The notes below the pieces were generated by a model. That model saw nothing but the letters and a program-made list of their open reading frames with translations, made no database searches and was not told the DNA's origin. This document shows positions 4,744-60,962 of a stretch of DNA of 64,000 nucleotides, one piece after another (positions within the stretch are counted from its first letter, which is position 1; each line of letters opens with the position of its first letter). Source of the DNA: Candidatus Roizmanbacteria bacterium (GTDB lineage: Bacteria; Patescibacteriota; Microgenomatia; UBA1406; GWC2-37-13); NCBI GenBank assembly GCA_016215445.1, contig JACRJL010000003.1, positions 154,924 to 218,923 of the forward strand. Direction: 5' to 3'. A program made the translations under genes and the position numbers.

Positions 4744-4987
4744 CGCTGACCTCCTCTAAAACCCAGTTGAGATTTTCCGTATCAAATTTAAGACGGAAGT
4801 CTAGATTTCCGTCGCTGACATGAAAGATATGAAATAGATTCCGGCCCTCCCTTATTTTGTGGTGGTAGGCGACTTTTTTTATGAAATAGTCGCGCAAGCG
4901 CCAACGCATTTTATAAGGAGCAACTTTATTTTCTTCATGATTATATGAAGAGATTACGCTCACTTTTTCAAAAATCGTTTCCAACAT
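4727..4987 (-). CDS. small hypothetical protein translationally coupled to the Y-family polymerase
   Basis: 86-aa ORF overlapping the polymerase start by 17 nt. Its ATG lies 6 nt downstream of a TACAAT -10 box. Confidence 0.55.
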   Translation of the reverse strand: MLETIFEKVSVISSYNHEENKVAPYKMRWRLRDYFIKKVAYHHKIREGRNLFHIFHVSDGNLDFRLKFDTENLNWVLEEVSDGNST

Positions 4988-5757: not shown

Positions 5758-6420
5758 GTGAAAACAAAAATAAATAAATATATCTTCACCGAAGATATAA
5801 ACTATTTAAAAACGGACAAAATTTCTATTTGGGGAAAAGGGGATTTAAAGACATTGAATATTTTATCCAAGTCGGAAATTAAAGGTATTTGGTTAAATCT
5901 GGCTGCGGGAGACGGTCGGTACAATAATATATTACTTAATAAGGCAGACAAGGTGGTCGCGGCTGACATAGACGGAGGCGCCCTAAAAAAACTTTATAAA
6001 AATACTCCAAAAGATCTTCAGTCAAAGCTTGAGACGAAGATTCTAAATATGACAGAACGATTTTCTTTTGGAGATAATTATTTCGATGGCATTTTTTGCA
6101 CAGGTACTCTTTATTTGTTTCCAAAGGAAATTCTTAAGAAAATTTTTAAAGAAATAAGCCGAGTTTTGAAAAAAAACGGTTTTTTAATCTTTGATTTCGC
6201 TACAGACAGGAAAAAGGTTCGTCTTGACGGCAGAAAAATAACCGACAAAAGAATTGTTTACAAGATTGAAAGCGCCGGGGAAATGATAAAAGATCTTTTG
6301 CCGAATTATAGCCATGAAATAATCAGATCAAAAGTTCCTGAAGAATTAATCAAAATAGGAAAAAGGCAGTATCTTTTTTCCTGTAATTTTTTACTGGTTA
6401 AGGGAGTTAAACTGAAATAG
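5758..6420 (+). CDS. class I SAM-dependent methyltransferase
   Basis: Motif I LNLAAGDGRY. GTG start lies 7 nt after TGaTAAAAT. Confidence 0.75.
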   Translation: MKTKINKYIFTEDINYLKTDKISIWGKGDLKTLNILSKSEIKGIWLNLAAGDGRYNNILLNKADKVVAADIDGGALKKLYKNTPKDLQSKLETKILNMTERFSFGDNYFDGIFCTGTLYLFPKEILKKIFKEISRVLKKNGFLIFDFATDRKKVRLDGRKITDKRIVYKIESAGEMIKDLLPNYSHEIIRSKVPEELIKIGKRQYLFSCNFLLVKGVKLK

Positions 6421-7599: not shown

Positions 7600-8247
7600 A
7601 TGATTTTCCTTTCTTTAAAAACTTACAAAGAAGCGACAGGTGACAGCGTTATTAAACTTCTTTCTTCGGTAAAAAAAGTATCTTTGGAAACAGGAGTTCC
7701 TATCATTCCAGTTGCGCAGACAGTTGATCTTTATAGAATCAGAAAAGAGTTAAATCTTGAGATTTGGGCCCAGCACGTTGATCCTATTGATCCAGGCCGC
7801 CATATGGGTTTCATCTCTCCTTACAGCGTCAAGGAATTTGGAGCGAGCGGTGTCATTATTAACCATGCCGAACATCCGGTTCCGGAGGATGTCATCAAAA
7901 AAACAGTAGAGAAATCCAAAGAATACGGGCTCAAGACGCTTGTTTTATGTCAGTCGATCGAATTGGCAAAGCAGGTTGAGGAGTGGAATCCAGACTATAT
8001 TGGTTATGAAAAAGGCGAGTTGATTGCCGGCCCTGTCTCCATGGTTGAAATGGAGGAAAAAAACATTGAATATCTGGCAGGCGCTTTAAAGAAACCTCTG
8101 ATAGTCGGCGCTGGCATAGCCAACGGCGACCACGTCAAAAAAGCCGTTAAATTGGGCGGCAAAGGAGTAATCCTTGCCTCTGCCTTTGTTAAAGCGGAAA
8201 ATCCTGAAGCGAAACTTCGTGAATTAGCCGAAGGATTCAAAATATGA
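7600..8247 (+). CDS. tpiA: triosephosphate isomerase, archaeal type
   Basis: Short 215-aa TIM resembling archaeal TpiA by recall: SLKTYKEATG, AQHVDP, INHAEH, NPDYIGYEKGELIAG, GAGI...VKKAVKLGGKGVILASAFVKA. Confidence 0.85.
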   Translation: MIFLSLKTYKEATGDSVIKLLSSVKKVSLETGVPIIPVAQTVDLYRIRKELNLEIWAQHVDPIDPGRHMGFISPYSVKEFGASGVIINHAEHPVPEDVIKKTVEKSKEYGLKTLVLCQSIELAKQVEEWNPDYIGYEKGELIAGPVSMVEMEEKNIEYLAGALKKPLIVGAGIANGDHVKKAVKLGGKGVILASAFVKAENPEAKLRELAEGFKI

Positions 8248-28724: not shown

Positions 28725-29390
28725 ATGAGAATACTCGTTGTCGAAGATGAACACAGAATTGCTAATTTAATAAAAAAAGGATTAGAACAAGAAAGCTATG
28801 CTGTTGACGTTGCTTATAATGGAGATGACGGATACGATCTGGCGTCAACCGAAGAATACGATACTATAATTCTTGACCTGATGCTTCCGGGGCTCGATGG
28901 AATAAAGATTACAGAAAATCTTCGTAAAGAAAAAATCCATACTCCGATTTTGATTTTAACTGCCAAAGGCCAGATTCAAGATAAAGTCAAAGGATTAGAT
29001 AGCGGGGCCGACGATTATTTAACAAAGCCATTTTCTTTTGAAGAGTTATTAGCGAGAGTCAGGGCTCTGATGCGAAGACCAAAAACCGCAGTCACTGAAA
29101 ACTTGGTCGCCTCGGATCTAACTCTTAATTCCAAAACTTTTGAAGTCAAAAGAGGAGGAAAATCAATAGAACTATCGAGTAAAGAATTTTCTCTTCTCGA
29201 ATACTTAATGAGAAATAAGTCAAGAATACTGACCAAAGACCAAATCATTTCCCATGTTTGGGATTATGACGCCGACATTTTGCCAAACACGATCGAAGTT
29301 TATATAAAGAATTTGAGGAATAAAGTCGATGTAGGTTTTAAAAAGAAATTAATTAATACGGTTAGAGGATTTGGATATAAGATAGAATAA
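28725..29390 (+). CDS. OmpR-family response regulator
   Basis: Receiver domain (ILVVEDE...DLMLPGLDG) plus a winged-helix C-terminus (TVRGFGYKI). Confidence 0.92.
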   Translation: MRILVVEDEHRIANLIKKGLEQESYAVDVAYNGDDGYDLASTEEYDTIILDLMLPGLDGIKITENLRKEKIHTPILILTAKGQIQDKVKGLDSGADDYLTKPFSFEELLARVRALMRRPKTAVTENLVASDLTLNSKTFEVKRGGKSIELSSKEFSLLEYLMRNKSRILTKDQIISHVWDYDADILPNTIEVYIKNLRNKVDVGFKKKLINTVRGFGYKIE

Positions 29391-29391
29391 T

Positions 29392-30387
29392 ATGTTTAAA
29401 CAAGCTCGAATAAAATTGACTCTTTGGTATTTATTGATAATAATGTTTGTCAGCATTTTTTTTAGCCTGGTGATTCACCGAGGGTTGATTGCGGAGGTCA
29501 ATAGAGTTACTCGGATGGAGCAACTTCGGTTTGAGAGAGGTTCATTTGACTATCGGGTCTTTCACCCAGCCTTTTTGGATCCGGAAATAATTGAAGAAAT
29601 CAAAAGAAGGATCACCTTTGGTTTAATAACCATCAATGGAATAATTTTTGTCAGTGCTGGCGCTTTGGGATATTTTTTGGCTGGAAAAACCTTAAGACCG
29701 ATTCAAGAAATGGTCAATGAACAGAACCGTTTTATTTCAGACGCATCACATGAGCTGCGCACTCCCCTGACGTCTTTGAAAACCTCGATCGAAGTCGGAC
29801 TGAGAGACAAAGATATCGACTTAGAAAGCGCGAAAAAATTAATCAACGAGAATCTTTTGGAAATCAATAAACTGCAATCTTTGTCAGAAAATTTGCTTCA
29901 ACTTACCCAATATAAAAGCGGAGACAACCATTTAAAATTTGAAAAAGTTCCTGTGAAAAAAATAATCAATGAAGTTTTCAAGAAAATCGAGATAATTGCC
30001 AAAGAAAAAAAAATAGAAATTAGAAATAAAGCCGGAAACTATTTTGTCAGAGGAAACAAATATAGCTTGACGGATCTTTTTATTATTCTTTTGGATAACG
30101 CTGTCAAATATAGTCGAGCCAAATCCGAAGTTATTATTTCTACTAAAAAAAATAATAAAACTGTTTCTATTTTTTTCAAAGACAAAGGGATGGGGATTGC
30201 GGAAAAAGATCTGCCTCATGTTTTTGATAGATTTTATCGAGCGGATAAGGCTCGGGGGAGAGACGGGTATGGACTGGGGTTGGCGATTGCCAAGAAGATT
30301 GTTGAAAGTCATGGTGGGGAAATAAAAATAGAGAGTAAGTTAGAAGAAGGAACGACAGTAAAAGTTTCTTTGCCGATTTTCAGTTAG
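29392..30387 (+). CDS. sensor histidine kinase
   Basis: H-box SDASHELRTPLT, N/G boxes (DNAVKYS, GLGLAIAK), 2 TM segments. Confidence 0.9.
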   Translation: MFKQARIKLTLWYLLIIMFVSIFFSLVIHRGLIAEVNRVTRMEQLRFERGSFDYRVFHPAFLDPEIIEEIKRRITFGLITINGIIFVSAGALGYFLAGKTLRPIQEMVNEQNRFISDASHELRTPLTSLKTSIEVGLRDKDIDLESAKKLINENLLEINKLQSLSENLLQLTQYKSGDNHLKFEKVPVKKIINEVFKKIEIIAKEKKIEIRNKAGNYFVRGNKYSLTDLFIILLDNAVKYSRAKSEVIISTKKNNKTVSIFFKDKGMGIAEKDLPHVFDRFYRADKARGRDGYGLGLAIAKKIVESHGGEIKIESKLEEGTTVKVSLPIFS

Positions 30388-30410
30388 ATTTAAGATTTAG
30401 TTCTTAAAAT

Positions 30411-30589
30411 AAGACTCGGAAACGTAATTTTTATCACACGAGAGTCTTTCCCTCGCCTAAAGGCGGGGCCCCTCTCGAAAGTGAAAAAATCACATTGCCT
30501 CGTCTTTTAAAAGCGAAGATACCAAATTTATTTGCGCTTTTGGGGTGTAGGGGCTCCCACTGCGTCAAAAAATTTCGGTATCGAGCTTT
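30411..30589 (+). repeat. structured GC-rich intergenic repeat, copy A (long form)
   Basis: Shares AAGACTC..ATTTTTATCAC..GAAAGTGAAAAAAT..CCTCGTCTT..CAAATTT..CG(G/T)T(A/G)TCGAGCTTT with 59109-59227. Confidence 0.75.
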
Positions 30590-30595
30590 ATAAAT

Positions 30596-31879
30596 ATGAA
30601 TAAAATAAAAAATTGGTTTATAAAACTTTCTTTAATTAAAAAAATAATTATCATAGTTATTGTTCTATCTCTTGGTTTTTTTGGCTATTCAAAAATTTCT
30701 TCTTCATCAAAAAATAAAGTTTCTTACGAAACTACTAAAGCCGAAAAAGGAAACTTGGTTGTTGCTGTCACCGGGTCGGGGACGGTGTCTTCGAATAACA
30801 ACAGCAACGTGACGACTCAAGCCACCGGCGTTGTTAAGACTTTATATGTCAAAGACGGTGACGTCGTCAATACGGGTGATAAAATTCTTGAGATCGATCT
30901 TGATCTTGAGGGTCAACAAAAAAATGCCCAGGCCTGGGCTTCTTATCAAGGGGCACAAAATTCACTCCAATCTGCCAAAGACTTTTTATATACCGCTCAG
31001 GCAGAACTTTATACTAAGTGGCAGACTTATTTCGATCTATCCGAAAGTGATAAATATATGGGGAGTGACGACAAGCCGAAGACAGAAGAAAGAAATAATA
31101 ATAAGGAATTTTTGATTACCCAAGACAACTGGTTGGCGGCCGAGGCTAATTTTAAACTAAAAGAAAAAGCCGTTGATCAGGCGCGAACATCTTTGACCGC
31201 TGCTTGGTATTCTTATCAACAATCATCACCAATTATCTACGCGCCGATTTCCGGAACGGTTTCCGGTCTGTCTTTGCAGGTTGGATCGGTAATCAATTCC
31301 CAGTCGAGTTCAAATACAACAGCAACGACCAATAAGATTGCCGGTGTGAGAACAGACGCCATGCCGATGATTGCAATTAATTTGACCGAGATTGACGTAC
31401 CAAAAATCAAAGTCGGGGACAAAGCGACAATTACTTTTGACGCTTTTTCCGACAAAACATACACCGGAAAAGTTATTAGTTTAGATTTGATTGGAACGAT
31501 TGCATCAGGTGTGACTTCTTATCCGACGGTAATTTTGCTCGACACGAAATCCGATCAAATTCTACCCAATATGGCGACATCGGCTAACATCATTACCGAC
31601 ACAAAAGACGACGTTTTACTGATTCCAACTTCTGCCGTAACGACGGAAAACGGAACCTCAATAGTTCAAGTCATGAAAAACGGCAAACCGCAGACAGTCG
31701 AAGTTGAAGTAGGACTGTCATCCGACGAGCAAATAGAAATTACTTCAGGATTAAAAGAGGGTGATATTGTTGTTACTTCAACCACTCAATCGGAGGCAAC
31801 GTCCGGTTCTTCTACAAACAGGTCGACTTCGCCGTTCGGAACATTCGGTGGCGGAGGTAATTTAAGAATCGCCCGCTAA
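30596..31879 (+). CDS. efflux transporter periplasmic adaptor (HlyD/MacA family)
   Basis: N-terminal TM helix, biotinyl-lipoyl-like segments (V..GD.V..GD.L) and a coiled-coil hairpin. Sits upstream of MacB-like genes. Confidence 0.85.
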   Translation: MNKIKNWFIKLSLIKKIIIIVIVLSLGFFGYSKISSSSKNKVSYETTKAEKGNLVVAVTGSGTVSSNNNSNVTTQATGVVKTLYVKDGDVVNTGDKILEIDLDLEGQQKNAQAWASYQGAQNSLQSAKDFLYTAQAELYTKWQTYFDLSESDKYMGSDDKPKTEERNNNKEFLITQDNWLAAEANFKLKEKAVDQARTSLTAAWYSYQQSSPIIYAPISGTVSGLSLQVGSVINSQSSSNTTATTNKIAGVRTDAMPMIAINLTEIDVPKIKVGDKATITFDAFSDKTYTGKVISLDLIGTIASGVTSYPTVILLDTKSDQILPNMATSANIITDTKDDVLLIPTSAVTTENGTSIVQVMKNGKPQTVEVEVGLSSDEQIEITSGLKEGDIVVTSTTQSEATSGSSTNRSTSPFGTFGGGGNLRIAR

Positions 31880-31881
31880 CC

Positions 31882-32574
31882 ATGATAAAAGTCAAAGACA
31901 TTTCAAAAATTTATCAAACCGGAACAGTTGAAACAGCTGCCCTTGCCAATATTTCGTTTGAGATAAAAAAAGGCGATTATGTGGCGATTATGGGTCCTTC
32001 GGGATCTGGTAAATCAACTTTAATGCACATTATCGGGATATTAGATAGTCCGACAAAAGGAGAATATTTTTTGGACGGGCAAAAAGTCAGCCAGCTTTCC
32101 GAAGACGAAGCGGCTGAGGTTCGCAACCACAAGATCGGTTTTATATTCCAGGCCTTCAATCTTTTGCCGAGGACAACCGCTCTCCAAAATGTCATACTCC
32201 CGATGAGATATGCCAATATTTCCGTTGAAGAAAGAGTAGAGAAAGCAAAAAAATATCTGACGATGGTCGGGTTGGGAGACAGAATGAATCATACTTCAAA
32301 CCAGCTGTCCGGGGGACAACAGCAACGGGTGGCAATCGCGCGGGGTCTGGCAATGAATCCGGCAATTCTTCTCGCTGACGAGCCGACCGGCAATATCGCC
32401 TCGGCTCAAGCAGAGGAAATTATGAAAATTTTTGAGAAGTTAAATCAGGACGGCCATACCATTGTCATGATTACTCACGAGGCTGACATCGCCGATCACG
32501 CCAAAAGAGTTATTCACCTAAAAGATGGAAAGATTATTAAAGACGAGAGAAATGGTAAGAAAATAAAAAAATAA
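31882..32574 (+). CDS. ABC transporter ATP-binding protein (MacB/LolD type)
   Basis: [24 protein letters not shown] and LLADEPTGN motifs. Confidence 0.93.
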
Positions 32575-32576
32575 AT

Positions 32577-33806
32577 ATGGAAGATTTAATCGAAACCATT
32601 AAAGAAAGTTTTGGAACATTGACGCTGAACAAAATGCGCACGGGTCTGGCGATTCTTGGCATTGTCATCGGCATCGGCAGTGTTATTGCCCTAATTTCTT
32701 TAGGTCAAGCGAGTCAAAAATCAATTCAAAACAGTATCCAGTCTTTAGGAAGTAATCTTTTGACAGTGATGCCAGGAGGACAGAGAAGTGGAGCCATCCA
32801 GGGTCCATCAGGTGGCGGAACAACCCTGACTTTGGCTGATGCCAAGGCAATCGAGTCGACTTCAAAAATTACCACCATCAATTCCGTTTCTCCTGAACTG
32901 TCTCAACGCAGTCAGGTGACCGCTGGCAGAAACAACACTAATACTTCGATTCTTGGTGTCTATCCGCAATATTCAACGATAAGGAAGGTTGATATAGCAA
33001 ACGGAGTTTTTATCAGTCAAAGTGACGTCGACAACGTGAGAAAGGTTGCCGTCTTGGGGCCGCAGGTCGTCGAAGACCTTTTTGGGGAGGGGTCGACCAA
33101 TGTCGTTGGCCAGACTATTCGAGTCGGTGGACAGCAACTCAAGGTAATAGGAGTGACAGTTTCAAAAGGAGGTAGCGGTTTCCAAAACCAGGACGATCGG
33201 ATCTATGTTCCCTTGTCAACAGCGCAGAAGCAGTTGTTTGGTGTTAACTATCTGTCGTCAATAGCTGTTGAGGCAAAAAACGCCAATGTGATGATCGATG
33301 CCCAAAACGAAATCGGCTATTTTCTCTTGGAAAAACATAAATTAAGTGATCCGGCCAATGCCGATTTCTCAATTTTTTCTCAAAATGATATTTTAAATAC
33401 AGCGTCGCAAGTGACAGGAACATTCACCGCTCTTCTTGGAGGGATTGCGGCGATTTCACTTTTAGTTGGAGGAATAGGAATCATGAATATAATGTTGGTG
33501 ACGGTGACAGAAAGAACAAGAGAGATAGGCTTAAGAAAAGCCTTGGGAGCCAAGAAAAAAACTATCATTACCCAGTTTTTGACAGAAGCAATCATTCTCA
33601 CTTTCACAGGAGGGATATTAGGGATGGTTATAGGGGTAATTATTTCTTATATTTTAGCGATCGTTATGAGTTTACCGTTTACGATTTCTTTTTCGGCTAT
33701 AGGGTTGGCAATCGGAGTATCAGGAGCAATAGGCATTATTTTCGGTTGGTATCCTGCGCAAAAAGCAGCGGGGTTGCAACCTATAGAGGCGTTGAGATAT
33801 GAATAA
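32577..33806 (+). CDS. ABC transporter permease (MacB/FtsX type)
   Basis: MacB periplasmic domain plus a C-terminal FtsX domain (ERTREIGLRKALGAKK). Confidence 0.9.
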   Translation: MEDLIETIKESFGTLTLNKMRTGLAILGIVIGIGSVIALISLGQASQKSIQNSIQSLGSNLLTVMPGGQRSGAIQGPSGGGTTLTLADAKAIESTSKITTINSVSPELSQRSQVTAGRNNTNTSILGVYPQYSTIRKVDIANGVFISQSDVDNVRKVAVLGPQVVEDLFGEGSTNVVGQTIRVGGQQLKVIGVTVSKGGSGFQNQDDRIYVPLSTAQKQLFGVNYLSSIAVEAKNANVMIDAQNEIGYFLLEKHKLSDPANADFSIFSQNDILNTASQVTGTFTALLGGIAAISLLVGGIGIMNIMLVTVTERTREIGLRKALGAKKKTIITQFLTEAIILTFTGGILGMVIGVIISYILAIVMSLPFTISFSAIGLAIGVSGAIGIIFGWYPAQKAAGLQPIEALRYE

Positions 33807-46675: not shown

Positions 46676-46694
46676 GCGATGTGGTGTTTTTTTT
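46643..46694. terminator. bidirectional intrinsic terminator
   Basis: An A-run, then CACCGCC..AATTACC-aaa-GGTAATT..GGCGATGTGGTG, then T8, lying between convergent genes. Confidence 0.6.
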
Positions 46695-46705
46695 ACTACT
46701 CGTCG

Positions 46706-46984
46706 TTAGTCTTCATTTTCTTCCTCATCATCCTCGTGTTCAGGTAATTCCGAGTGTCCCGGAGGTCCGGTGTGGGTATGGTGGTCGTCGCCAAAACCCC
46801 AACCCGGTTTGACTGAATTTCCCGGAGGTCCGGTGTGGGTATGATTATCATCACCGTTACCCCAACCTGGTCTCGTCCCGCCTGAATGCGAGTTACCGGC
46901 AACAACACTTCGCCCAACAAGGGCTAAAGCGGCTGCAAGAAGACCGACGACAATCAAAACCCTTAATTTTTTCATCGTTTTCAC
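46706..46984 (-). CDS. secreted His-rich tandem-repeat peptide with acidic tail
   Basis: Signal peptide, two copies of PGWG(N/F)GDD(N/H)HTHTGPPG(N/H)S, and EHEDDEEENED. Strong AAGGGGGTGA SD. Confidence 0.75.
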   Translation of the reverse strand: MKTMKKLRVLIVVGLLAAALALVGRSVVAGNSHSGGTRPGWGNGDDNHTHTGPPGNSVKPGWGFGDDHHTHTGPPGHSELPEHEDDEEENED

Positions 46985-47115
46985 CCCCTTTCTTAGAAGA
47001 ATTTAAAATGTCAAGCTTATAGCTTAAGGGTGTTTTATTAGATAAAAGAAAGAAAAGAGTAATAAATACGTAAGACAGGTTTTTTTGACGGGTTTACGTT
47101 TATAATGGTTTTAGG

Positions 47116-52919: not shown

Positions 52920-53041
52920 GGCCCTGGCTACGACCTACTTTCCCTACCCCTTTTCGGGGTCAGTATCATCGGCGCTGACTCGTTTCACTTCCTTGTTCGG
53001 GATGGAAAAGGGTGGTACCAAGTCGCTTCAATAACCAGGGC
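52920..53041 (-). rRNA. rrf: 5S ribosomal RNA (stand-alone)
   Basis: The reverse complement reads GCCCTGGTTATTGAAGCGACTTGGTACCACCC..CCATCCCGAACAAGGAAGTGAAAC..GCGCCGATGATACT..GGGAAAGTAGGTCGTAGCCAGGGC. Helix I and conserved loop sequences are present. Confidence 0.9.
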
Positions 53042-53853: not shown

Positions 53854-55596
53854 ATGTTTAAGCCAGATGTTGCTTTTTATCTAGGAGAACAAAAAAAAGG
53901 CGGTTATTCGGGGATTGTCTCCCAGGATAATTTGTTTTTCGTTATAGAAATTGGGTCGGGAATAAGTGAGGAAGTAGGTCATAGGGTTTTGGATTTTGTC
54001 AAGGAAAAAATAAAAGGAACTAGGATAAATAATCTGTCTGATTTTGAGAATTTTATTATTAATATAATCAAGGAGAAAAACCTGCCGGCTGGTTTTTCTC
54101 TTGCTTCGGCTTATTTAAAAGACAGTATTTTATATTTAAAAACTTCCGGGTCGGGTGAAGTTTATATAAGGAGGAAAGGAAAGTTGGGACTTCTTATTGA
54201 AGGTGATGCCACTGCATCAGGCCCAGTTGAGGACATGGATTTTTTTATCTTTGTCACGGAAAATTTTCTCAATCTGGTTTTGGGAAGGCAAGGTTTGGAG
54301 AAGACCTTTGACCATAGAAGCCCGACGGAAATTATCGACGAAATTACACCAGGTTTGAAAGCAAAACAAGATATTGGTGCCGTGGCGCTTTTTGTCAATC
54401 TAAAAAAGATTCATGACGAGTCCTTTACCGGTTTTCCCGGAGGAGAAGTTGAGGAAGTAATGGCTTTTTCTTGGAAAGACAGACTCATTTCAACTAAGCA
54501 GTATCTTCAAGCGATCGGACGACAAAAAACATTGACTTTCATCACTGTTTTTGTTTTGTTTCTGATACTTCTTTGGAGCGTGGTTTTGGGTTATCAGAGG
54601 AGAACGAGTGCCGGCGCGCAAAACAAAATAAAACTGGCCCGCGAACTTGTGACGCAAAAACTGTCGACTGCCGAGGATGTTGCCTATTTAAATATGAGTC
54701 GGGCTTTAATATTGATATCGGAAAGCAAAGAGGAAGTGGCTAAGTTGAAAAAAGAGATTGGCGATAAAAGAAAGGAAGCGGTCGAGTTGGAGCAGCTGGT
54801 TAAAGAAACTGAAAATAAGATACTGAAAAAAGAAATGAGACAGTACAGTGAGTTCTTTGACCTCGGAGTTGACGACAAAAACGCTTCGGGAAACAGGATT
54901 TATTTGGACGGCGAAACGGCCTTTATTCTTGACAATAAAAGAAGTATGATCTATAAGCTTTCCCTTGAGAAAAAATCCCTTCAGAAAGATCGAAAGTCAG
55001 AGGTCAAGTCGGCCAGCCTTGTAGCAGGTTTTGAAACAGAAACGTTTTTTTATGCTAAGGGTAGCGGCGTTTTTCGGATTGATAAAGAGGGAAAACTAAA
55101 AAAGGTTATAGACAATGATAAAGATTGGGTTGAAATTAGCGGTATTTATCTTTATAACGGCAACATCTATTTGTTGGACAGAGGTCGTGATGAAGTTTGG
55201 AAGTATCTGCGTGGGGAGGATGGTTATGGAAGCAAAAATTCTTATTTTGAAAGCGGTCAGGCAATAGATCTGTCGTCTATCAATTCTTTAGGGATAGACG
55301 GCTCTGTCTATCTGGTTGGTGATTCGATAGTGATAAAATATACTTCGGGTCTTCGCGATGGGTTTAAAATCGACCTTCCTGATGAGGATACTAGTTTCAG
55401 CAAGGTTTTTACGGCTAAAGACTTGGAGAAGATTTACCTTTGGGACAAGAGTAAGGCGGTCGTTTATGTTTTGAGCAAAACAGGCGAGTATATCGAACAG
55501 GTGAATTCGGAGATTTTATCAAAAGGAAGCGACATGATTGTCTACAAGGAAAAAATATATATATTAGTAGGGAACAAAATCTTCAAGATAGAATAA
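53854..55596 (+). CDS. hypothetical: degenerate PP2C-like N-domain, TM, coiled coil, C-terminal beta-repeat domain
   Basis: The order of N-terminal blocks resembles PP2C, but the metal-binding Asp residues are replaced (EIGSG, TSGSGEVY, VTENF). TM at about aa 237-258. The C-terminus carries repeated IYLLD/VYLVGD/IYLWD/IYILVG strands. Confidence 0.55.
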   Translation: MFKPDVAFYLGEQKKGGYSGIVSQDNLFFVIEIGSGISEEVGHRVLDFVKEKIKGTRINNLSDFENFIINIIKEKNLPAGFSLASAYLKDSILYLKTSGSGEVYIRRKGKLGLLIEGDATASGPVEDMDFFIFVTENFLNLVLGRQGLEKTFDHRSPTEIIDEITPGLKAKQDIGAVALFVNLKKIHDESFTGFPGGEVEEVMAFSWKDRLISTKQYLQAIGRQKTLTFITVFVLFLILLWSVVLGYQRRTSAGAQNKIKLARELVTQKLSTAEDVAYLNMSRALILISESKEEVAKLKKEIGDKRKEAVELEQLVKETENKILKKEMRQYSEFFDLGVDDKNASGNRIYLDGETAFILDNKRSMIYKLSLEKKSLQKDRKSEVKSASLVAGFETETFFYAKGSGVFRIDKEGKLKKVIDNDKDWVEISGIYLYNGNIYLLDRGRDEVWKYLRGEDGYGSKNSYFESGQAIDLSSINSLGIDGSVYLVGDSIVIKYTSGLRDGFKIDLPDEDTSFSKVFTAKDLEKIYLWDKSKAVVYVLSKTGEYIEQVNSEILSKGSDMIVYKEKIYILVGNKIFKIE

Positions 55597-55687
55597 TACT
55601 TGACAAACTCTTACATTTTCAGTTAATCTTAAGAATAAGTGCGTTCGTTAATAATTGATCAATTATTATAGGAGAGGGGGTGAGAAT

Positions 55688-56464
55688 ATGAGCGATAAAA
55701 TTTGTTTTAACAAGACTTTGACTTATTTGGTTCTTTTAGTCGCCGCAGTTGTCGGCGCTTTTTATGTAATGAACTACGCGAATTCCCAAAATCTAGGAAG
55801 TACTCCGAAAGCTGCTCCTGGTAAATGTAATTGGGCAAGCGTATCAAATTATCCGGCTGGCTGTGGTTTGACAAGTGGTACAAGTAGAGGTTATTCAACA
55901 GCTATGAACTCTAAGTTTGTAGAAGATTCTTCAAGAAAAGAACCTTCAACAGGTACTTTAAAGTTTAGATGTTGTGTAGCTATACCAGAGAGTCAAAGTG
56001 GATTGCAACCAAGTGATTCTCAAAAAAAAGCTCAAATCGAAGCATGTGCAGCTCGAAAGGGTGAAATAGTAGTTAAAAAAGCAGACCCTCAGAATAATGC
56101 AAATAATAGATGTACTTATTATGATGGTGGTTATCAACTAAGACAAGGTTACGTTTTTTGTACAGTGAAAATGTCTGATGATTTTCAACAATGCGCCGCT
56201 GCTGTCGGTACCAAGATAAACAGTGATACAAGAACAACATTGGCAGCCATATGTGCTGCAAAAGTTGATAAAATGGTGCCGGGTACACAATATACTTCTC
56301 CTGATAATCAGAATAGAACATGCTTGATCTATACAGGGGGTTATAGATATGGAAACGTGAATGTTACACCAGCACCAGCAGGTACGGATCAAATTGGATG
56401 TTTAAGAGTTAATGCTCACGATCTTTACAAAAGCGGAAAATACGAAACAGACTATTGTAAATAA
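55688..56464 (+). CDS. membrane-anchored Cys-rich protein (orphan)
   Basis: GGAGAGGGGGTGA SD before ATG 55688, N-terminal TM, more than 12 Cys, and an internal repeat (NNRCTYYDGGYQLRQGY / QNRTCLIYTGGYRYGN). Confidence 0.75.
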   Translation: MSDKICFNKTLTYLVLLVAAVVGAFYVMNYANSQNLGSTPKAAPGKCNWASVSNYPAGCGLTSGTSRGYSTAMNSKFVEDSSRKEPSTGTLKFRCCVAIPESQSGLQPSDSQKKAQIEACAARKGEIVVKKADPQNNANNRCTYYDGGYQLRQGYVFCTVKMSDDFQQCAAAVGTKINSDTRTTLAAICAAKVDKMVPGTQYTSPDNQNRTCLIYTGGYRYGNVNVTPAPAGTDQIGCLRVNAHDLYKSGKYETDYCK

Positions 56465-56508
56465 TATATTGAGAAGTTTTTGAATAAGAATTTCCGGGAC
56501 GCCGGATG

Positions 56509-56541
56509 AAAATACCCCGCAGACGTGCGGGGTATTTTTTT
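56509..56541 (+). terminator. strong Rho-independent terminator
   Basis: AAAATACCCCGCA-GACG-TGCGGGGTATTTTTTT. Confidence 0.85.
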
Positions 56542-56592
56542 GGCCAAAGTAACCCCGGAGGTTGTATATCGGCTTGGTATAATAATACAAAC

Positions 56593-57357
56593 ATGAACAA
56601 AAAACTTGTTTTTATAAAGTTAGGTGGTAGTTTGATTTCCGATAAAACTAAAGTCAATCAGGCTAACCTTAAGGTCATTGATAATCTTTCAAAAGAGATA
56701 AAGGCGGTTCTTGACCAAGATAATAATCTGTCCCTGTTCCTTTTCACCGGCGCCGGTGGGTTTGGGCATCCAGTTGCTGAGAAATACAAAAATAACTTGA
56801 AAGAAGGATTAACTGAAATAAAGAATGCCTGTAAAAAATTGAATCAAATAGTTGTTGATACTTTGATTAATCAAAGTGGATTAAAAACAGTTTCTATTGA
56901 ACCGGATAAAATTGTGGAATATAGAAACGGAAAGTTAACTTCGTTACTCAATAACTCCATTTTTCAACTGTTGGGAAAAAATATTATTCCTGTTTTCCAC
57001 GCCGACTTGGTTCATGACAAAAAACTGGGAGTTTCCGTTTTATCTATGGACAAGTTTTTGGCGGATTCGGCGGTTTTTTTTAAAGACAGAGGCTTTAAAA
57101 TCGAAAAAGTAATATTTGCCGGTACAACCTCCGGGGTTGTTGATCGGCATGGCAGGACAATTCCCAGGTTGACCAAAAAAGATTTTGTCAAAATGGAAAA
57201 TGTTTTCTATAAGGGTATAGGGATTGACGTTTCCGGTGGAATGAAGTACAAAGTAGAACAATGTTTAAAATTGGCGGATAGGGGAATTGAGAGTCAAATA
57301 GTAGACGGAAGAACAAAAAATATCTTCAATAAAACAGGCACGGTTATCTCAAAGTAG
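56593..57357 (+). CDS. isopentenyl phosphate kinase (amino-acid-kinase fold)
   Basis: IKLGGSLISDK, GAGGFGHPVAEKY and IDVSGGMKYKVE closely resemble archaeal IPK motifs by recall. Start set at ATG 56593, downstream of the terminator. Confidence 0.85.
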   Translation: MNKKLVFIKLGGSLISDKTKVNQANLKVIDNLSKEIKAVLDQDNNLSLFLFTGAGGFGHPVAEKYKNNLKEGLTEIKNACKKLNQIVVDTLINQSGLKTVSIEPDKIVEYRNGKLTSLLNNSIFQLLGKNIIPVFHADLVHDKKLGVSVLSMDKFLADSAVFFKDRGFKIEKVIFAGTTSGVVDRHGRTIPRLTKKDFVKMENVFYKGIGIDVSGGMKYKVEQCLKLADRGIESQIVDGRTKNIFNKTGTVISK

Positions 57358-58069: not shown

Positions 58070-59110
58070 ATGTTCAATCCTACTTTTAATATTACCAACA
58101 AGACTCTGACTAATATTTCCAAGATCGAAGCCGCCGAGGAAGTGATTAAGCATTCGCCGCTTCTTCCCTTGTGGGAAAAACAGTTCAAAGAAGACGCCAT
58201 AATAAGATCGGCCTATCACGGTACTCATATTGAAGGCAACGCCCTTCATAAAGATGACGCCAAAGATATTCTTGAAGGTAGGCAAGTAATCGGCAGACCG
58301 AGAGACATTCAGGAGATTATAAACTATAGAAAGGTAATTGATTTTATTGACGAAGAAGCTAAGCGCCGAATTGATAAAATTACTGAGCTTCTTATAAAGA
58401 AACTACACAGAACCATTACAGAGAAAATTTTATCGACAGATCAAGGAGAGTACAGAAATAAGCAGGTAATAATTAGAAACTCTTCAACAGGGGAGGTGAC
58501 CTTTCGGCCGCCGCCTCCATTGGAAGTCTCTTTCTTGATGAGAGAGTTTGTCTATTGGCTCAACCGCGATGACAAAGACAAAATTCACCCGGTTTTAAAA
58601 GCCGGCATCTGTCATCACGAGCTTGTCCGTATTCATCCTTTTATAGATGGTAATGGTCGGGTAGCCAGGGTTTTGGCAACATTGATTTTGCTTTTGGGAG
58701 GTTATGACATTAGACGATTTTTTTCCCTTGAGGAGTATTATGACAAAGACGCCGTCGCTTACTATCACAATCTGCAGAAAGCCTCTTCAGGAGATCTGAC
58801 GACCTGGCTCGAGTATTTTACCTATGGGGCGGCAATCGAGTTTGAAAAAATAAAGGAAAAGATTTTGAAGCTTTCCAAAGACGTCAAATTGAAAGAAAAA
58901 TTCGGAGGTCAGCAGATCTATCTGACGGAAAGACAGATGAAGCTTGTCGAGTATCTTCAGGAAGTCGGTTATATTCAGAATCAGATCTTTGCCAATGTTT
59001 TCCCCCAAGTTTCCGAGGACACGGTTCTTCGCGATCTGCAGGATTTGATAAAAAAAGGACTCATTAAAAAAGTTGGGAGCACGAAAGCGGCACGTTATGT
59101 TATCGTATAA
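58070..59110 (+). CDS. Fic family protein with C-terminal winged-helix domain
   Basis: HPFIDGNGRVARV Fic motif, N-terminal THIEGN, C-terminal wHTH-like segment (TERQMKLVEYLQEVGYIQNQ...). Confidence 0.9.
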   Translation: MFNPTFNITNKTLTNISKIEAAEEVIKHSPLLPLWEKQFKEDAIIRSAYHGTHIEGNALHKDDAKDILEGRQVIGRPRDIQEIINYRKVIDFIDEEAKRRIDKITELLIKKLHRTITEKILSTDQGEYRNKQVIIRNSSTGEVTFRPPPPLEVSFLMREFVYWLNRDDKDKIHPVLKAGICHHELVRIHPFIDGNGRVARVLATLILLLGGYDIRRFFSLEEYYDKDAVAYYHNLQKASSGDLTTWLEYFTYGAAIEFEKIKEKILKLSKDVKLKEKFGGQQIYLTERQMKLVEYLQEVGYIQNQIFANVFPQVSEDTVLRDLQDLIKKGLIKKVGSTKAARYVIV

Positions 59111-59227
59111 GACTCAGCGGTATCAATTTTTATCACAGCGGGGCCCCTGCCCCGAAAGTGAAAAAATTGCTCCCGCCTCGTCTTCAAAGGAAAAAACGAA
59201 GACAACAAATTTCCGTTGTCGAGCTTT
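59109..59227 (+). repeat. structured GC-rich intergenic repeat, copy B (short form)
   Basis: Homologous to 30411-30589. Begins within the Fic stop codon and ends 7 nt before the ligase ATG. Confidence 0.75.
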
Positions 59228-59234
59228 TTGACAT

Positions 59235-60962
59235 ATGAAATTTTCAGAATTAGCAATATACTTCGACAAAATCAGTAGCGTTTCTTCCCGTCTGGAAATT
59301 ACCCGGATTCTGGCAGAGCTTTTTAATAAATTGACCCCGGATGAAATCGAAAAAGTAGTTTACCTTCTTCAGGGTCGAGTCAGGCCAGCGTACGAAGGGA
59401 TTGATTTCGGAATGGCGGAAAGAACAATGATTAAGGCTGCTCTATCGGCACTGAATATAGAGAAAAGTTTTTTTGAAAAAGAATTCAAAAAGATAGGGGA
59501 TTTGGGTGAGACAGTTGAACATTTCAAGAAACAGTACACTTCTTTTGAAGAAAGAGATTGGGAGGCAGTTGAAGTTTATAATTTTTTTTATAGATTGGCG
59601 ACGGCGTCAGGTTCAGGATCACAAGACGTCAAGGTGAGTTTGCTTGCCCAGTTGATTCGTCAGCTTGACGCTTTGTCTTCACGTTTTTTGGTTCGGTTAC
59701 CAACAGGAGACATCAGGATGGGTTTTTCCGATATGACAGTTCTTGATGCTTATTCATGGATGCTCAAAGGAGACAAAAGTTTACGGCCAATGATTGAAAA
59801 AGCTTATCATGTCAGGCCTGAATTGGGCTATATCGGTCGAGTAATTAAAGAAAAAGGCGTTGAGTCATTGGATAAAATCGGCCCCACAGTTTTTACTCCG
59901 ATTATTATGATGAGGGCGGAGAGGCTATCATCAGCGGATGAGATATTAAAACAAATCGGTACATGTTTGGTTGAACCAAAATTTGACGGCTTTAGGCTAC
60001 AAATTCATAAAAAAGGTAACGAAGTCAGGTTATTCTCCCGAAGCTTGGAGGACGTTACTTATATGTATCCTGATATTGTCGAAGGGGCAAAAAAACAAAT
60101 TCAATCAAGAGAGATCATAATTGAGGGTGAAGCAATAGGGTATAACGTTAAAACAGGCGAATTTCTTCCCTTTCAGGAGACAGTACAGCGAAAAAGAAAA
60201 TATGAAATAGAAAAGATGGCTAAAGAAATCCCTTTACGGTTATTCTCCTTTGAATTATTGTTTAAAAATGGAGTTAATTTCTTGGCTAAACCTTTTGTTG
60301 AAAGAAGAAAGGCGCTGGAAGAATCAATCACAACCACAAGAGATCTTTCCAAAGACACAATTGTTATTGCTGACCAGGAAGAAGTCAGTCAAACAGAAAA
60401 ACTCGAGAAACTGTTTGACGAAGCAGTAGAAAAAGGCTTGGAAGGAGTTTTGGCAAAAAAAATCACCGGCATTTACAAACCAGGCGCTAGAGAGTGGAAT
60501 TGGATTAAATACAAAAGAAGCTATTCGGCAAAAATTCAGGACACTATTGACTGTTTGGTGATGGGATATGATTTCGGGAAAGGTAAAAGAACGGTTTTTG
60601 GAATCGGTGCTTTTTTAGTCGGAGTCCTGGATGAAAAGGGGGATAAGTTTGTCACGATTGCGAAAATAGGGACAGGGTTGACTGATGAAGAGTGGAAACA
60701 ACTTCAAGTCAAAAGTCAAAAGTCAAAAGTCAAAAACAAACCCAATAATTATTCAGTTAATAAAATGATGAAATGTGATGTTTGGGTGGTGCCTTCGATT
60801 GTCGTTGAGATTAGGGCCGATGAGATAACAAAATCTCCGGTTCATACGGCCGGACTGGCTTTGAGATTCCCCAGATTAGAGCGGTTTAGAGATGACAAAA
60901 AACCAGAAGACGCGACCAATCTAAAAGAACTGACTAAAATGAGTGGGTTTTCAGCATATTAA
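59235..60962 (+). CDS. ATP-dependent DNA ligase (archaeal/eukaryal Lig1-like, with N-terminal DNA-binding domain)
   Basis: Adenylation motif EPKFDGFRLQIH and later motifs (EGEAI, LEGVLAKK, WIKYK). 575 aa. Confidence 0.9.
   Translation: MKFSELAIYFDKISSVSSRLEITRILAELFNKLTPDEIEKVVYLLQGRVRPAYEGIDFGMAERTMIKAALSALNIEKSFFEKEFKKIGDLGETVEHFKKQYTSFEERDWEAVEVYNFFYRLATASGSGSQDVKVSLLAQLIRQLDALSSRFLVRLPTGDIRMGFSDMTVLDAYSWMLKGDKSLRPMIEKAYHVRPELGYIGRVIKEKGVESLDKIGPTVFTPIIMMRAERLSSADEILKQIGTCLVEPKFDGFRLQIHKKGNEVRLFSRSLEDVTYMYPDIVEGAKKQIQSREIIIEGEAIGYNVKTGEFLPFQETVQRKRKYEIEKMAKEIPLRLFSFELLFKNGVNFLAKPFVERRKALEESITTTRDLSKDTIVIADQEEVSQTEKLEKLFDEAVEKGLEGVLAKKITGIYKPGAREWNWIKYKRSYSAKIQDTIDCLVMGYDFGKGKRTVFGIGAFLVGVLDEKGDKFVTIAKIGTGLTDEEWKQLQVKSQKSKVKNKPNNYSVNKMMKCDVWVVPSIVVEIRADEITKSPVHTAGLALRFPRLERFRDDKKPEDATNLKELTKMSGFSAY

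Follow-up and report, generated by a model that had tools for sequence, protein, structure and literature searches.

Structured intergenic blocks of a Roizmanbacteria genome as probable members of a hairpin-forming mobile DNA repeat family

Background

What is the structured block that separates a histidine kinase gene from a MacA-like gene in a Candidatus Roizmanbacteria genome? The block, copy A, is 179 nt long and lies at 30411-30589 of the window, by which we mean the whole 64-kb stretch of DNA that was analysed. A shorter relative, copy B, was found at ~59109-59229, between a Fic/DeoR gene and the gene of an ATP-dependent DNA ligase. A first-pass annotation had described both and had offered three options for them: a novel ncRNA, a cis-regulatory RNA or a MITE-like element. 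Here, we find the MITE-like option to be essentially right, and the two RNA options to be without support. Copies A and B are very probably intergenic members of a non-autonomous, hairpin-forming mobile DNA repeat family of Roizmanbacteria and other Microgenomates that resembles the Rickettsia palindromic elements (RPEs). On this reading, the repeat adds a new family, from a further phylum, to a known type of element.

Results

Two related insertions in the window

The genes and spacers around the two copies are listed below, with Pfam matches in brackets.

28725-29390, response regulator gene preceding the histidine kinase gene, flank of A
29392-30387, plus strand, histidine kinase gene, upstream flank of A (HisKA, HATPase_c)
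30388-30410, left part of the original kinase/MacA spacer, 23 nt, which together with 30590-30595 makes a 29-nt spacer
30596-33806, plus strand, MacA-like fusion protein, ABC ATPase and MacB/FtsX permease, downstream flank of A (HlyD_D23, ABC_tran, MacB_PCD, FtsX)
58070-59110, plus strand, Fic / DeoR-HTH protein, upstream flank of B (assigned by Pfam)
59235-60962, plus strand, ATP-dependent DNA ligase, downstream flank of B (assigned by Pfam)

Excising 30411-30589 leaves a spacer of 29 nt, which is the size of the element-free spacer in relatives; 30411-30589 is therefore the insertion itself, and the boundaries first drawn for it were exact. Copies A and B aligned with 73% column identity and two large indels, which correspond to the two insertions previously described in A relative to B, and the relative, first placed at 59109-59227, was found to extend to ~59229. 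An exact 14-mer (GAAAGTGAAAAAAT) and an exact 13-mer (AATTTTTATCACA) were confined to A and B in a search of the whole window, and BLAST of A against the window returned B as the sole significant match (E 5e-7). The elements have 45% G+C compared with 37% for the window, in line with the G+C-rich blocks in A/T-rich DNA that had drawn attention to them. In minimum-energy folds, A and B beat their shuffles on both strands (z -4.6 to -7.0), and every helix that the first-pass annotation had proposed appears in these folds, each in its proposed place.

The window ligase is 100% identical to the Candidatus Roizmanbacteria protein P0002, encoded on a 604-kb contig. As a separate observation, the 931-aa ligase homologue P0089 has intein and LAGLIDADG Pfam matches, so this ligase gene family hosts an intein in some relatives.

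Anatomy and pairing of the units

Copies A and B are built from units, a unit being an imperfect palindrome of ~85-110 nt that forms one long hairpin. The units and their helices are as follows.

30411-30506, plus strand, unit A1, full-length and 'forward' (T.C/C.T mismatch strand on the window plus strand), from sequence, fold and covariance model (91 bits, E 2e-21)
AAGAC 30411-15 / GTCTT 30502-06, closing stem P1 of A1
TC 30416-17 / TC 30500-01, mismatch of A1
30418-27 / 30490-99, stem P2 of A1, ~10 bp
TTTTTATCAC 30428-37 / GTGAAAAAA 30481-89, A/T stem P3 of A1, with one bulged A
CGAGAG 30439-44 / CTCTCG 30472-77, stem P4 of A1
30451-68, tip hairpin of A1
30510-30589, minus strand, unit A2, a diverged inverted unit (G.A strand on the window plus strand), model match at 30504-30595 on the minus strand (43.5 bits, E 3e-8)
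59109-59184, plus strand, unit B1, short-tip subtype, forward, from sequence, fold and model (73.6 bits, E 1e-16)
AAGAC 59109-13 / GTCTT 59180-84, closing stem P1 of B1, its first two bases overlapping the Fic TAA stop (59108-10)
59191-59229, minus strand, unit B2, a putative collapsed remnant of an inverted unit, from alignment with the ends of A2 and fold

From base to tip, a unit consists of a 5-bp closing stem, an invariant 2x2 mismatch, a stem of 8-11 bp, a conserved, A/T-rich stem in which one A is bulged out, then a short G+C stem and finally a variable tip. The arms of each unit are inverted repeats. B1 follows the same plan as A1 with a short GGGGC/GCCCC tip, while A2 reads AAAGC-GA(A)-GATACC ... 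GGTATC-GA-GCTTT and folds better on its plus strand than on its minus strand (-30.2 vs -25.6 kcal/mol).

In copy A, units A1 and A2 are joined tail-to-tail, and the same type of pair recurs at the non-orthologous loci L042, L049, L004, L028 and L009; such a pair has AAGACTCGG at one end and the complement of AAGCTCGATACC at the other. The ends of A had been reported as partly complementary and taken for terminal inverted repeats or a closing stem. The complementarity is present, but it arises because the 3' half of A (30510-30589) is a second copy of the element, inverted. A 'switch' had also been suggested, in which AAGAC would pair with GTCTT as an alternative fold; in the fold, this pair is the closing stem of A1. 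Copy B is one unit plus a collapsed remnant. The remnant, B2, retains the outer stem, the GA(A)/GA mismatch and a second stem (GACAAC/GTTGTC) around an 8-nt loop; it falls below the model threshold, and its assignment comes from alignment and shared architecture.

Two other identities were rejected by inspection: a DnaA box in TTATCACAC, which has four mismatches to TTATNCACA, and a kink-turn in A2, whose non-bulged strand is a misfit.

A covarying hairpin family in Microgenomates

A scan for the exact core (TTTTTATCAC-N10-40-GAAAGTGAAAAAA, one genome per species) returned 55 loci, about 45 of them real, in ~22 Microgenomates genomes with up to 10+ copies per genome; almost all of the loci came from Roizmanbacteria and other Microgenomates assemblies. 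A covariance model, proposed at the outset as the way to find further copies and built here from relatives, identified 65 strong copies (E < 2e-5) in 398 kb drawn from ~22 Roizmanbacteria/Microgenomates genomes and three in the window. Leaving aside the copies that had served for choosing loci, it added roughly one more per 30 kb. Many of the 65 copies occupy orthologous positions in related species, which puts the number of independent insertions well below 65, and much of the spread is therefore old. At orthologous sites, the elements are 78-97% identical and their flanks 70-83%, a comparison that the search for an exact core biases; because the scan demanded that core, the core also looks more conserved than it is.

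The hairpin covaries. Across the whole structure, 92% of cells were paired, vs 81% in shuffles, and changes on both sides were observed in 16 of 23 pairs. The covariation score was 0.33, compared with 0.14 for shuffled and 0.06-0.10 for slid alignments, with the alignment being fitted to the model in a way that favours the structure. Covariation of the outer stem was also found in a model-independent MAFFT alignment, where AGAC/GTCT, AAAT/ATTT, AAGC/GCTT, AGGC/GCCT and TGAT/ATCA variants occur. The covariation anticipated by the first-pass annotation is thus there, but for a palindromic DNA repeat it gives no discrimination between RNA and DNA.

Searches of other collections returned little. 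Rfam (15), searched at gathering thresholds over the whole window, had no family that matched A or B, where the best sub-threshold matches had E > 1 (searched at E <= 10). A viral contig scan and phage BLAST returned no counterpart of the element, and a literature search found no description of such elements in CPR bacteria. When four concatenated element translations were searched against 5.8 billion proteins, one match passed: P0001, a glycosyltransferase whose C-terminus is the element peptide. This peptide search says little about breadth, given that a 30-residue match cannot reach significance in a database of 5.8 billion proteins.

Two loci in relatives have copies of note in their own right. 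At L005, two copies 1.8 kb apart (5835-5925 and 7681-7771) are identical over 86 nt, each just upstream of a different gene; from their first residues, the downstream genes resemble chorismate mutase and dehydroquinase. These copies are either a recent duplication or a hint of local reuse. At one LeuRS site, two species carry units with different tips (L002 5413-5502 with short GGGG, L021 7303-7407 with CGAGAG), which points either to an exchange of tips between copies by conversion or to more than one insertion at this site.

Insertion polymorphism at both window sites

Both sites in the window are polymorphic for the insertion. The kinase/MacA spacer is 28-37 nt long and element-free in at least four relatives (L056-58, L059-60, L062 and L063), and in L061 it holds a different, distant unit (24.6 bits). 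Protein identity is 79% for L056-58, 77% for L059-60 and 69% for L061. Sixty-one loci that encode MacA relatives had no model match. Relatives at the Fic/ligase spacer, with the identity of their ligase to that of the window, are as follows.

L117, 91%, different solo unit
L118, 84%, 6 nt, empty
L119, 82%, genes overlap, empty
L120, 81%, unrelated A/T-rich sequence
L004, 79%, full pair in opposite orientation

Two of these spacers are empty, and the other three (L117, L004 and L120) show three different arrangements. In all three Fic/ligase spacers that hold units, the units abut or overlap the upstream stop. The differing fillings therefore represent several independent insertions, each directly after the TAA stop.

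Two further differences among these relatives were observed. The 140-nt spacer of L120 (1861-2000) is very A/T-rich, with ATAGAAA/ATAGTTA-like repeats and no match to the element model, and may be a different repeat. Upstream of copy B, 55595-57343 holds two genes, one for an unknown protein of 269 aa and the other for a member of the amino-acid kinase family, that are absent from the otherwise syntenic L004; the kinase family gene is present in L117, L119 and L120.

Flanking target-site duplications had been raised as a possibility by the first-pass annotation. TA on both sides is possible in three of five pairs; A/T-rich flanks and palindromic ends blur the boundary. No TA duplication was seen at the Fic/ligase insertions, and no consistent target-site duplication across the five pairs and these insertions. 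We found no transposase or partner gene near A or B in the window, or recurrently near other copies in the 8-kb loci, and clustering of neighbouring ORFs for a recurrent partner gene returned syntenic housekeeping genes only.

Copies inside genes

The first-pass annotation had asked whether copies always sit at gene junctions; about half of the copies in relatives lie inside genes. Specifically, 32 of the 65 copies fall within stop-free frames of at least 200 aa, 28 of these sharing one orientation, and by translation of the frame they add ~30 residues to the host protein. The family thus occupies essential genes in frame. The hosts are listed below; Pfam domains flank the element in the first six.

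LeuRS, two different insertion sites
Ile/Val-type synthetase (Ile/ValRS)
LepA, element between the GTPase domain and domain II
P-type ATPase
Tgt, three sites; in three genomes the gene carries two full copies
methionyl-tRNA formyltransferase (Fmt)
QueA, judged by flanking translation

Compared with the solved structure 6ygl_A, residues 119-171 of the L037 Tgt fall between its residues 116 and 117, while residues 246-288 take the place of eight of its residues.

Identical nucleotides are read in three frames across hosts (FLSHES..., FYHTRV... and FITRES...), and therefore it is the nucleic acid that is conserved, not the peptide. The forward, gene-sense strand has 1.5-1.75 open frames of 3, compared with 0.7 in shuffles, and intergenic copies show this as well. 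The anchor-to-anchor length modulo 3 in genic copies is uneven (18, 9 and 5), so frame conservation rests on open frames and not on unit length. From the frame and the stop-codon statistics, we infer that the genic copies are translated.

Some genic copies have decayed. The L014 LeuRS (~4860-4885) and site 2 of the L025 Tgt retain just the outer arms, in frame; the remnants are seen as AAAGATTCGGCA and as the peptide KARQ..RNLLSS. Old copies decay through loss of the hairpin interior. The L014 LeuRS was also considered as a virgin empty site, and this was rejected, as the 5' arm is kept and marks a deletion footprint.

Strand asymmetry

The two strands of a unit are not equivalent. The mismatch, five pairs from the hairpin base, is TC/TC in 54 of the 65 copies and a tandem G.A on the complementary strand. 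In 61 of 65 copies, the more stable fold (by 6-7.5 kcal/mol) is that of the complement of the gene-sense strand, and with DNA parameters this is so in 60 of 65; the asymmetry is equal in genic and intergenic copies. There are 109 G.U pairs on the better-folding strand vs 32 on the other. The consistency of this asymmetry comes partly from shared ancestry of the constant core, and A.C outnumbers G.T in the variable stems by just 27 to 14. For A1 and B1, the better-folding strand is the window minus strand, antisense to the flanking genes.

Discussion

Comparison with known repeats

REP, REPIN and BIME repeats are hairpin repeats without target-site duplication, often found as inverted pairs right after stop codons. 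REPs are 20-40 nt long, extragenic by definition and marked by a conserved GTAG at one end, and a tyrosine transposase probably acts on them in the form of single-stranded hairpins. The Roizmanbacteria repeat is like them in its hairpin, its lack of a consistent target-site duplication, its inverted pairs and its position directly after stop codons. It differs in size (85-110 nt per unit), in a consensus that lacks both GTAG and CTAC and in having half of its copies inside genes, and no RAYT gene was seen in the window or in the relatives' loci.

Elements derived from IS200/IS605 have no target-site duplication, strand-specific activity and hairpins with unpaired bases as recognition features. 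The repeat described here resembles them in its lack of a consistent duplication, its strand asymmetry and its hairpin with unpaired bases. In those elements, however, each end has a short subterminal hairpin of its own and the target is a fixed word of 4-5 nt, while the unit described here folds into a single hairpin, and no such word emerged from the scanned loci or the Fic/ligase insertions.

The MITE-like option stood on many dispersed copies, their absence from orthologous spacers and their inverted-repeat arms. A classical MITE is recognised by well-defined terminal inverted repeats, a target-site duplication of fixed form and an insertion sequence to which it is related; in the present case no duplication was consistent, and the window and the 8-kb loci yielded no parent element. 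Among bacterial MITEs with intragenic copies, ERIC, Correia/NEMIS and BOX are alike in size, inverted-repeat arms, many copies and insertion polymorphism between relatives, and occasional in-frame fusions are known for them (PMC10969869).

Of the known systems, the RPE (Ogata et al. 2000) comes closest; it is a ~100-150 bp palindromic repeat with dozens of copies in a small, reduced genome (PMC10969869). RPEs lie between genes and often in frame in unrelated housekeeping genes, where they encode a short conserved peptide, and have no known transposase (PMC10969869). The repeat described here is like RPEs in its size, its palindromic form, its many copies per small genome, its frequent in-frame position within housekeeping genes and the want of any known transposase. 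The likeness is one of form and behaviour, RPEs having no entry in Rfam, and the host is different, namely Patescibacteria/Microgenomates. The Roizmanbacteria repeat is moreover read in three frames, so there is no single conserved peptide, and it has an invariant tandem mismatch, a clear strand asymmetry and common tail-to-tail pairs.

Alternative explanations

One alternative is that A and B are RNAs, either as a structured leader for macA and the ligase gene or as an independent small RNA. The strong, significant folds and clear covariation speak for this, as do the asymmetry with its G.U pairs and tandem G.A, which are typical of RNA, the placement of A and B just upstream of a start codon on the gene strand, and the two identical L005 copies that precede two different genes. 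Against it, the flanking genes are unrelated and show no association with a gene class, copies occur in both orientations relative to their neighbours, and half of them sit in frame inside ORFs, among them unrelated housekeeping genes. Close orthologues of both window loci do without the element, the better-folding strand of A1 and B1 is antisense, promoter and terminator signals are at chance level, and there is no Rfam family. We therefore consider an RNA or leader very unlikely. A milder possibility is that intergenic copies have been co-opted in the manner of REP/BIME or SPRITE, as transcript-end hairpins that stabilise the upstream mRNA, weakly terminate transcription or insulate. Most intergenic units do abut or overlap the upstream stop, within ~10 nt, the hairpin is flanked 5' by A-rich and 3' by T-rich sequence, and between co-directional genes one orientation is favoured by 11 to 3. 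Yet a canonical U-tract is missing, the base of the stem is rich in A/U and holds a mismatch, and a terminator scan returned nothing in A and just the B2 remnant hairpin in B, at chance level. Abutment of the stop codon is expected anyway with original spacers of 0-37 nt, and the orientation counts are small and non-independent. Co-option is unlikely on this evidence; it is also compatible with a mobile repeat and offers no alternative for the element's origin.

The genic copies raise the question of whether they are intervening sequences removed from the mRNA, with the closing stem joining the exon ends and the intergenic copies being the element at rest. Both junctions lie at the base of one stem, a suitable hairpin geometry, and CPR bacteria are known for introns in their rRNA genes (PMC7143001). 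However, all 32 genic copies are in the host frame without stops, which would be needless if they were spliced, decayed remnants are still in frame, and no ribozyme or intron match was found in Rfam, making splicing highly improbable. An integron attC or another site-specific recombination site would account for an imperfect palindrome that is about as long as attC, follows gene ends directly and folds strand-asymmetrically, but we give it practically no credence: the core sites RYYYAAC / GTTRRRY are absent, the terminal stem is variable (AGAC/GTCT, AAAT/ATTT, AAGC/GCTT), there is no cassette array or integrase near A or B, and copies lie inside essential genes.

Mechanism and implications

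On the preferred reading, that of a mobile DNA repeat, units enter the very short spacers of compact genomes either alone or as tail-to-tail pairs; they also enter genes in frame, to be translated as ~30-residue insertions, and later decay via internal deletion. Copy A is then a pair inserted into the 29-nt kinase/MacA spacer, and copy B a unit with a collapsed partner in a Fic/ligase spacer of originally 0-6 nt. Because the whole-unit hairpin joins both junctions, has an invariant mismatch near its base, is strand-asymmetric and leaves no consistent duplication, it is possible, though we hold this tentatively and as less than probable, that the G.A strand, folded on itself as single-stranded nucleic acid, is the moving form of the element and that an enzyme encoded elsewhere cuts and joins it.

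A more specific version, to which we assign a small chance, is that the unit is the substrate of a single-strand-specific mobilisation system of CPR bacteria. The tandem G.A, the covarying stems and the asymmetry would then mark the folded strand, as DNA or antisense RNA, and an enzyme without a recognised gene would cut and rejoin at the hairpin base. If true, and if such a system prefers the translatable orientation, it would actively supply essential CPR proteins with new stretches of peptide.

For the flanking genes, we infer no dedicated function of the element beyond a strong hairpin in read-through transcripts. A neutral effect on the window genes is likeliest, and a secondary role in transcript stability or insulation may exist.

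Translatable selfish palindromic DNA in essential genes has until now been seen as a Rickettsia peculiarity; with the CPR, the very small, tightly packed genomes of a second, unrelated lineage are found to tolerate such elements. The family offers a concrete source for unexplained extra loops in CPR aminoacyl-tRNA synthetases, Tgt and LepA. For annotators, spacers of this type are not to be taken as regulatory RNAs, nor the protein inserts as assembly errors, and the family's covariance model can be used for marking such repeats in Microgenomates assemblies.

Other features of the window

Two further features were observed in the window. Inside a 440-nt gap (46676-47115), two G+C-rich tandem copies of 63 nt, 81% identical, lie at 46752-46871, apparently within a short minus-strand ORF that starts near 46960. 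A lone 5S rRNA gene is present at 52922-53039 on the minus strand, with no 16S or 23S in the 64-kb window.
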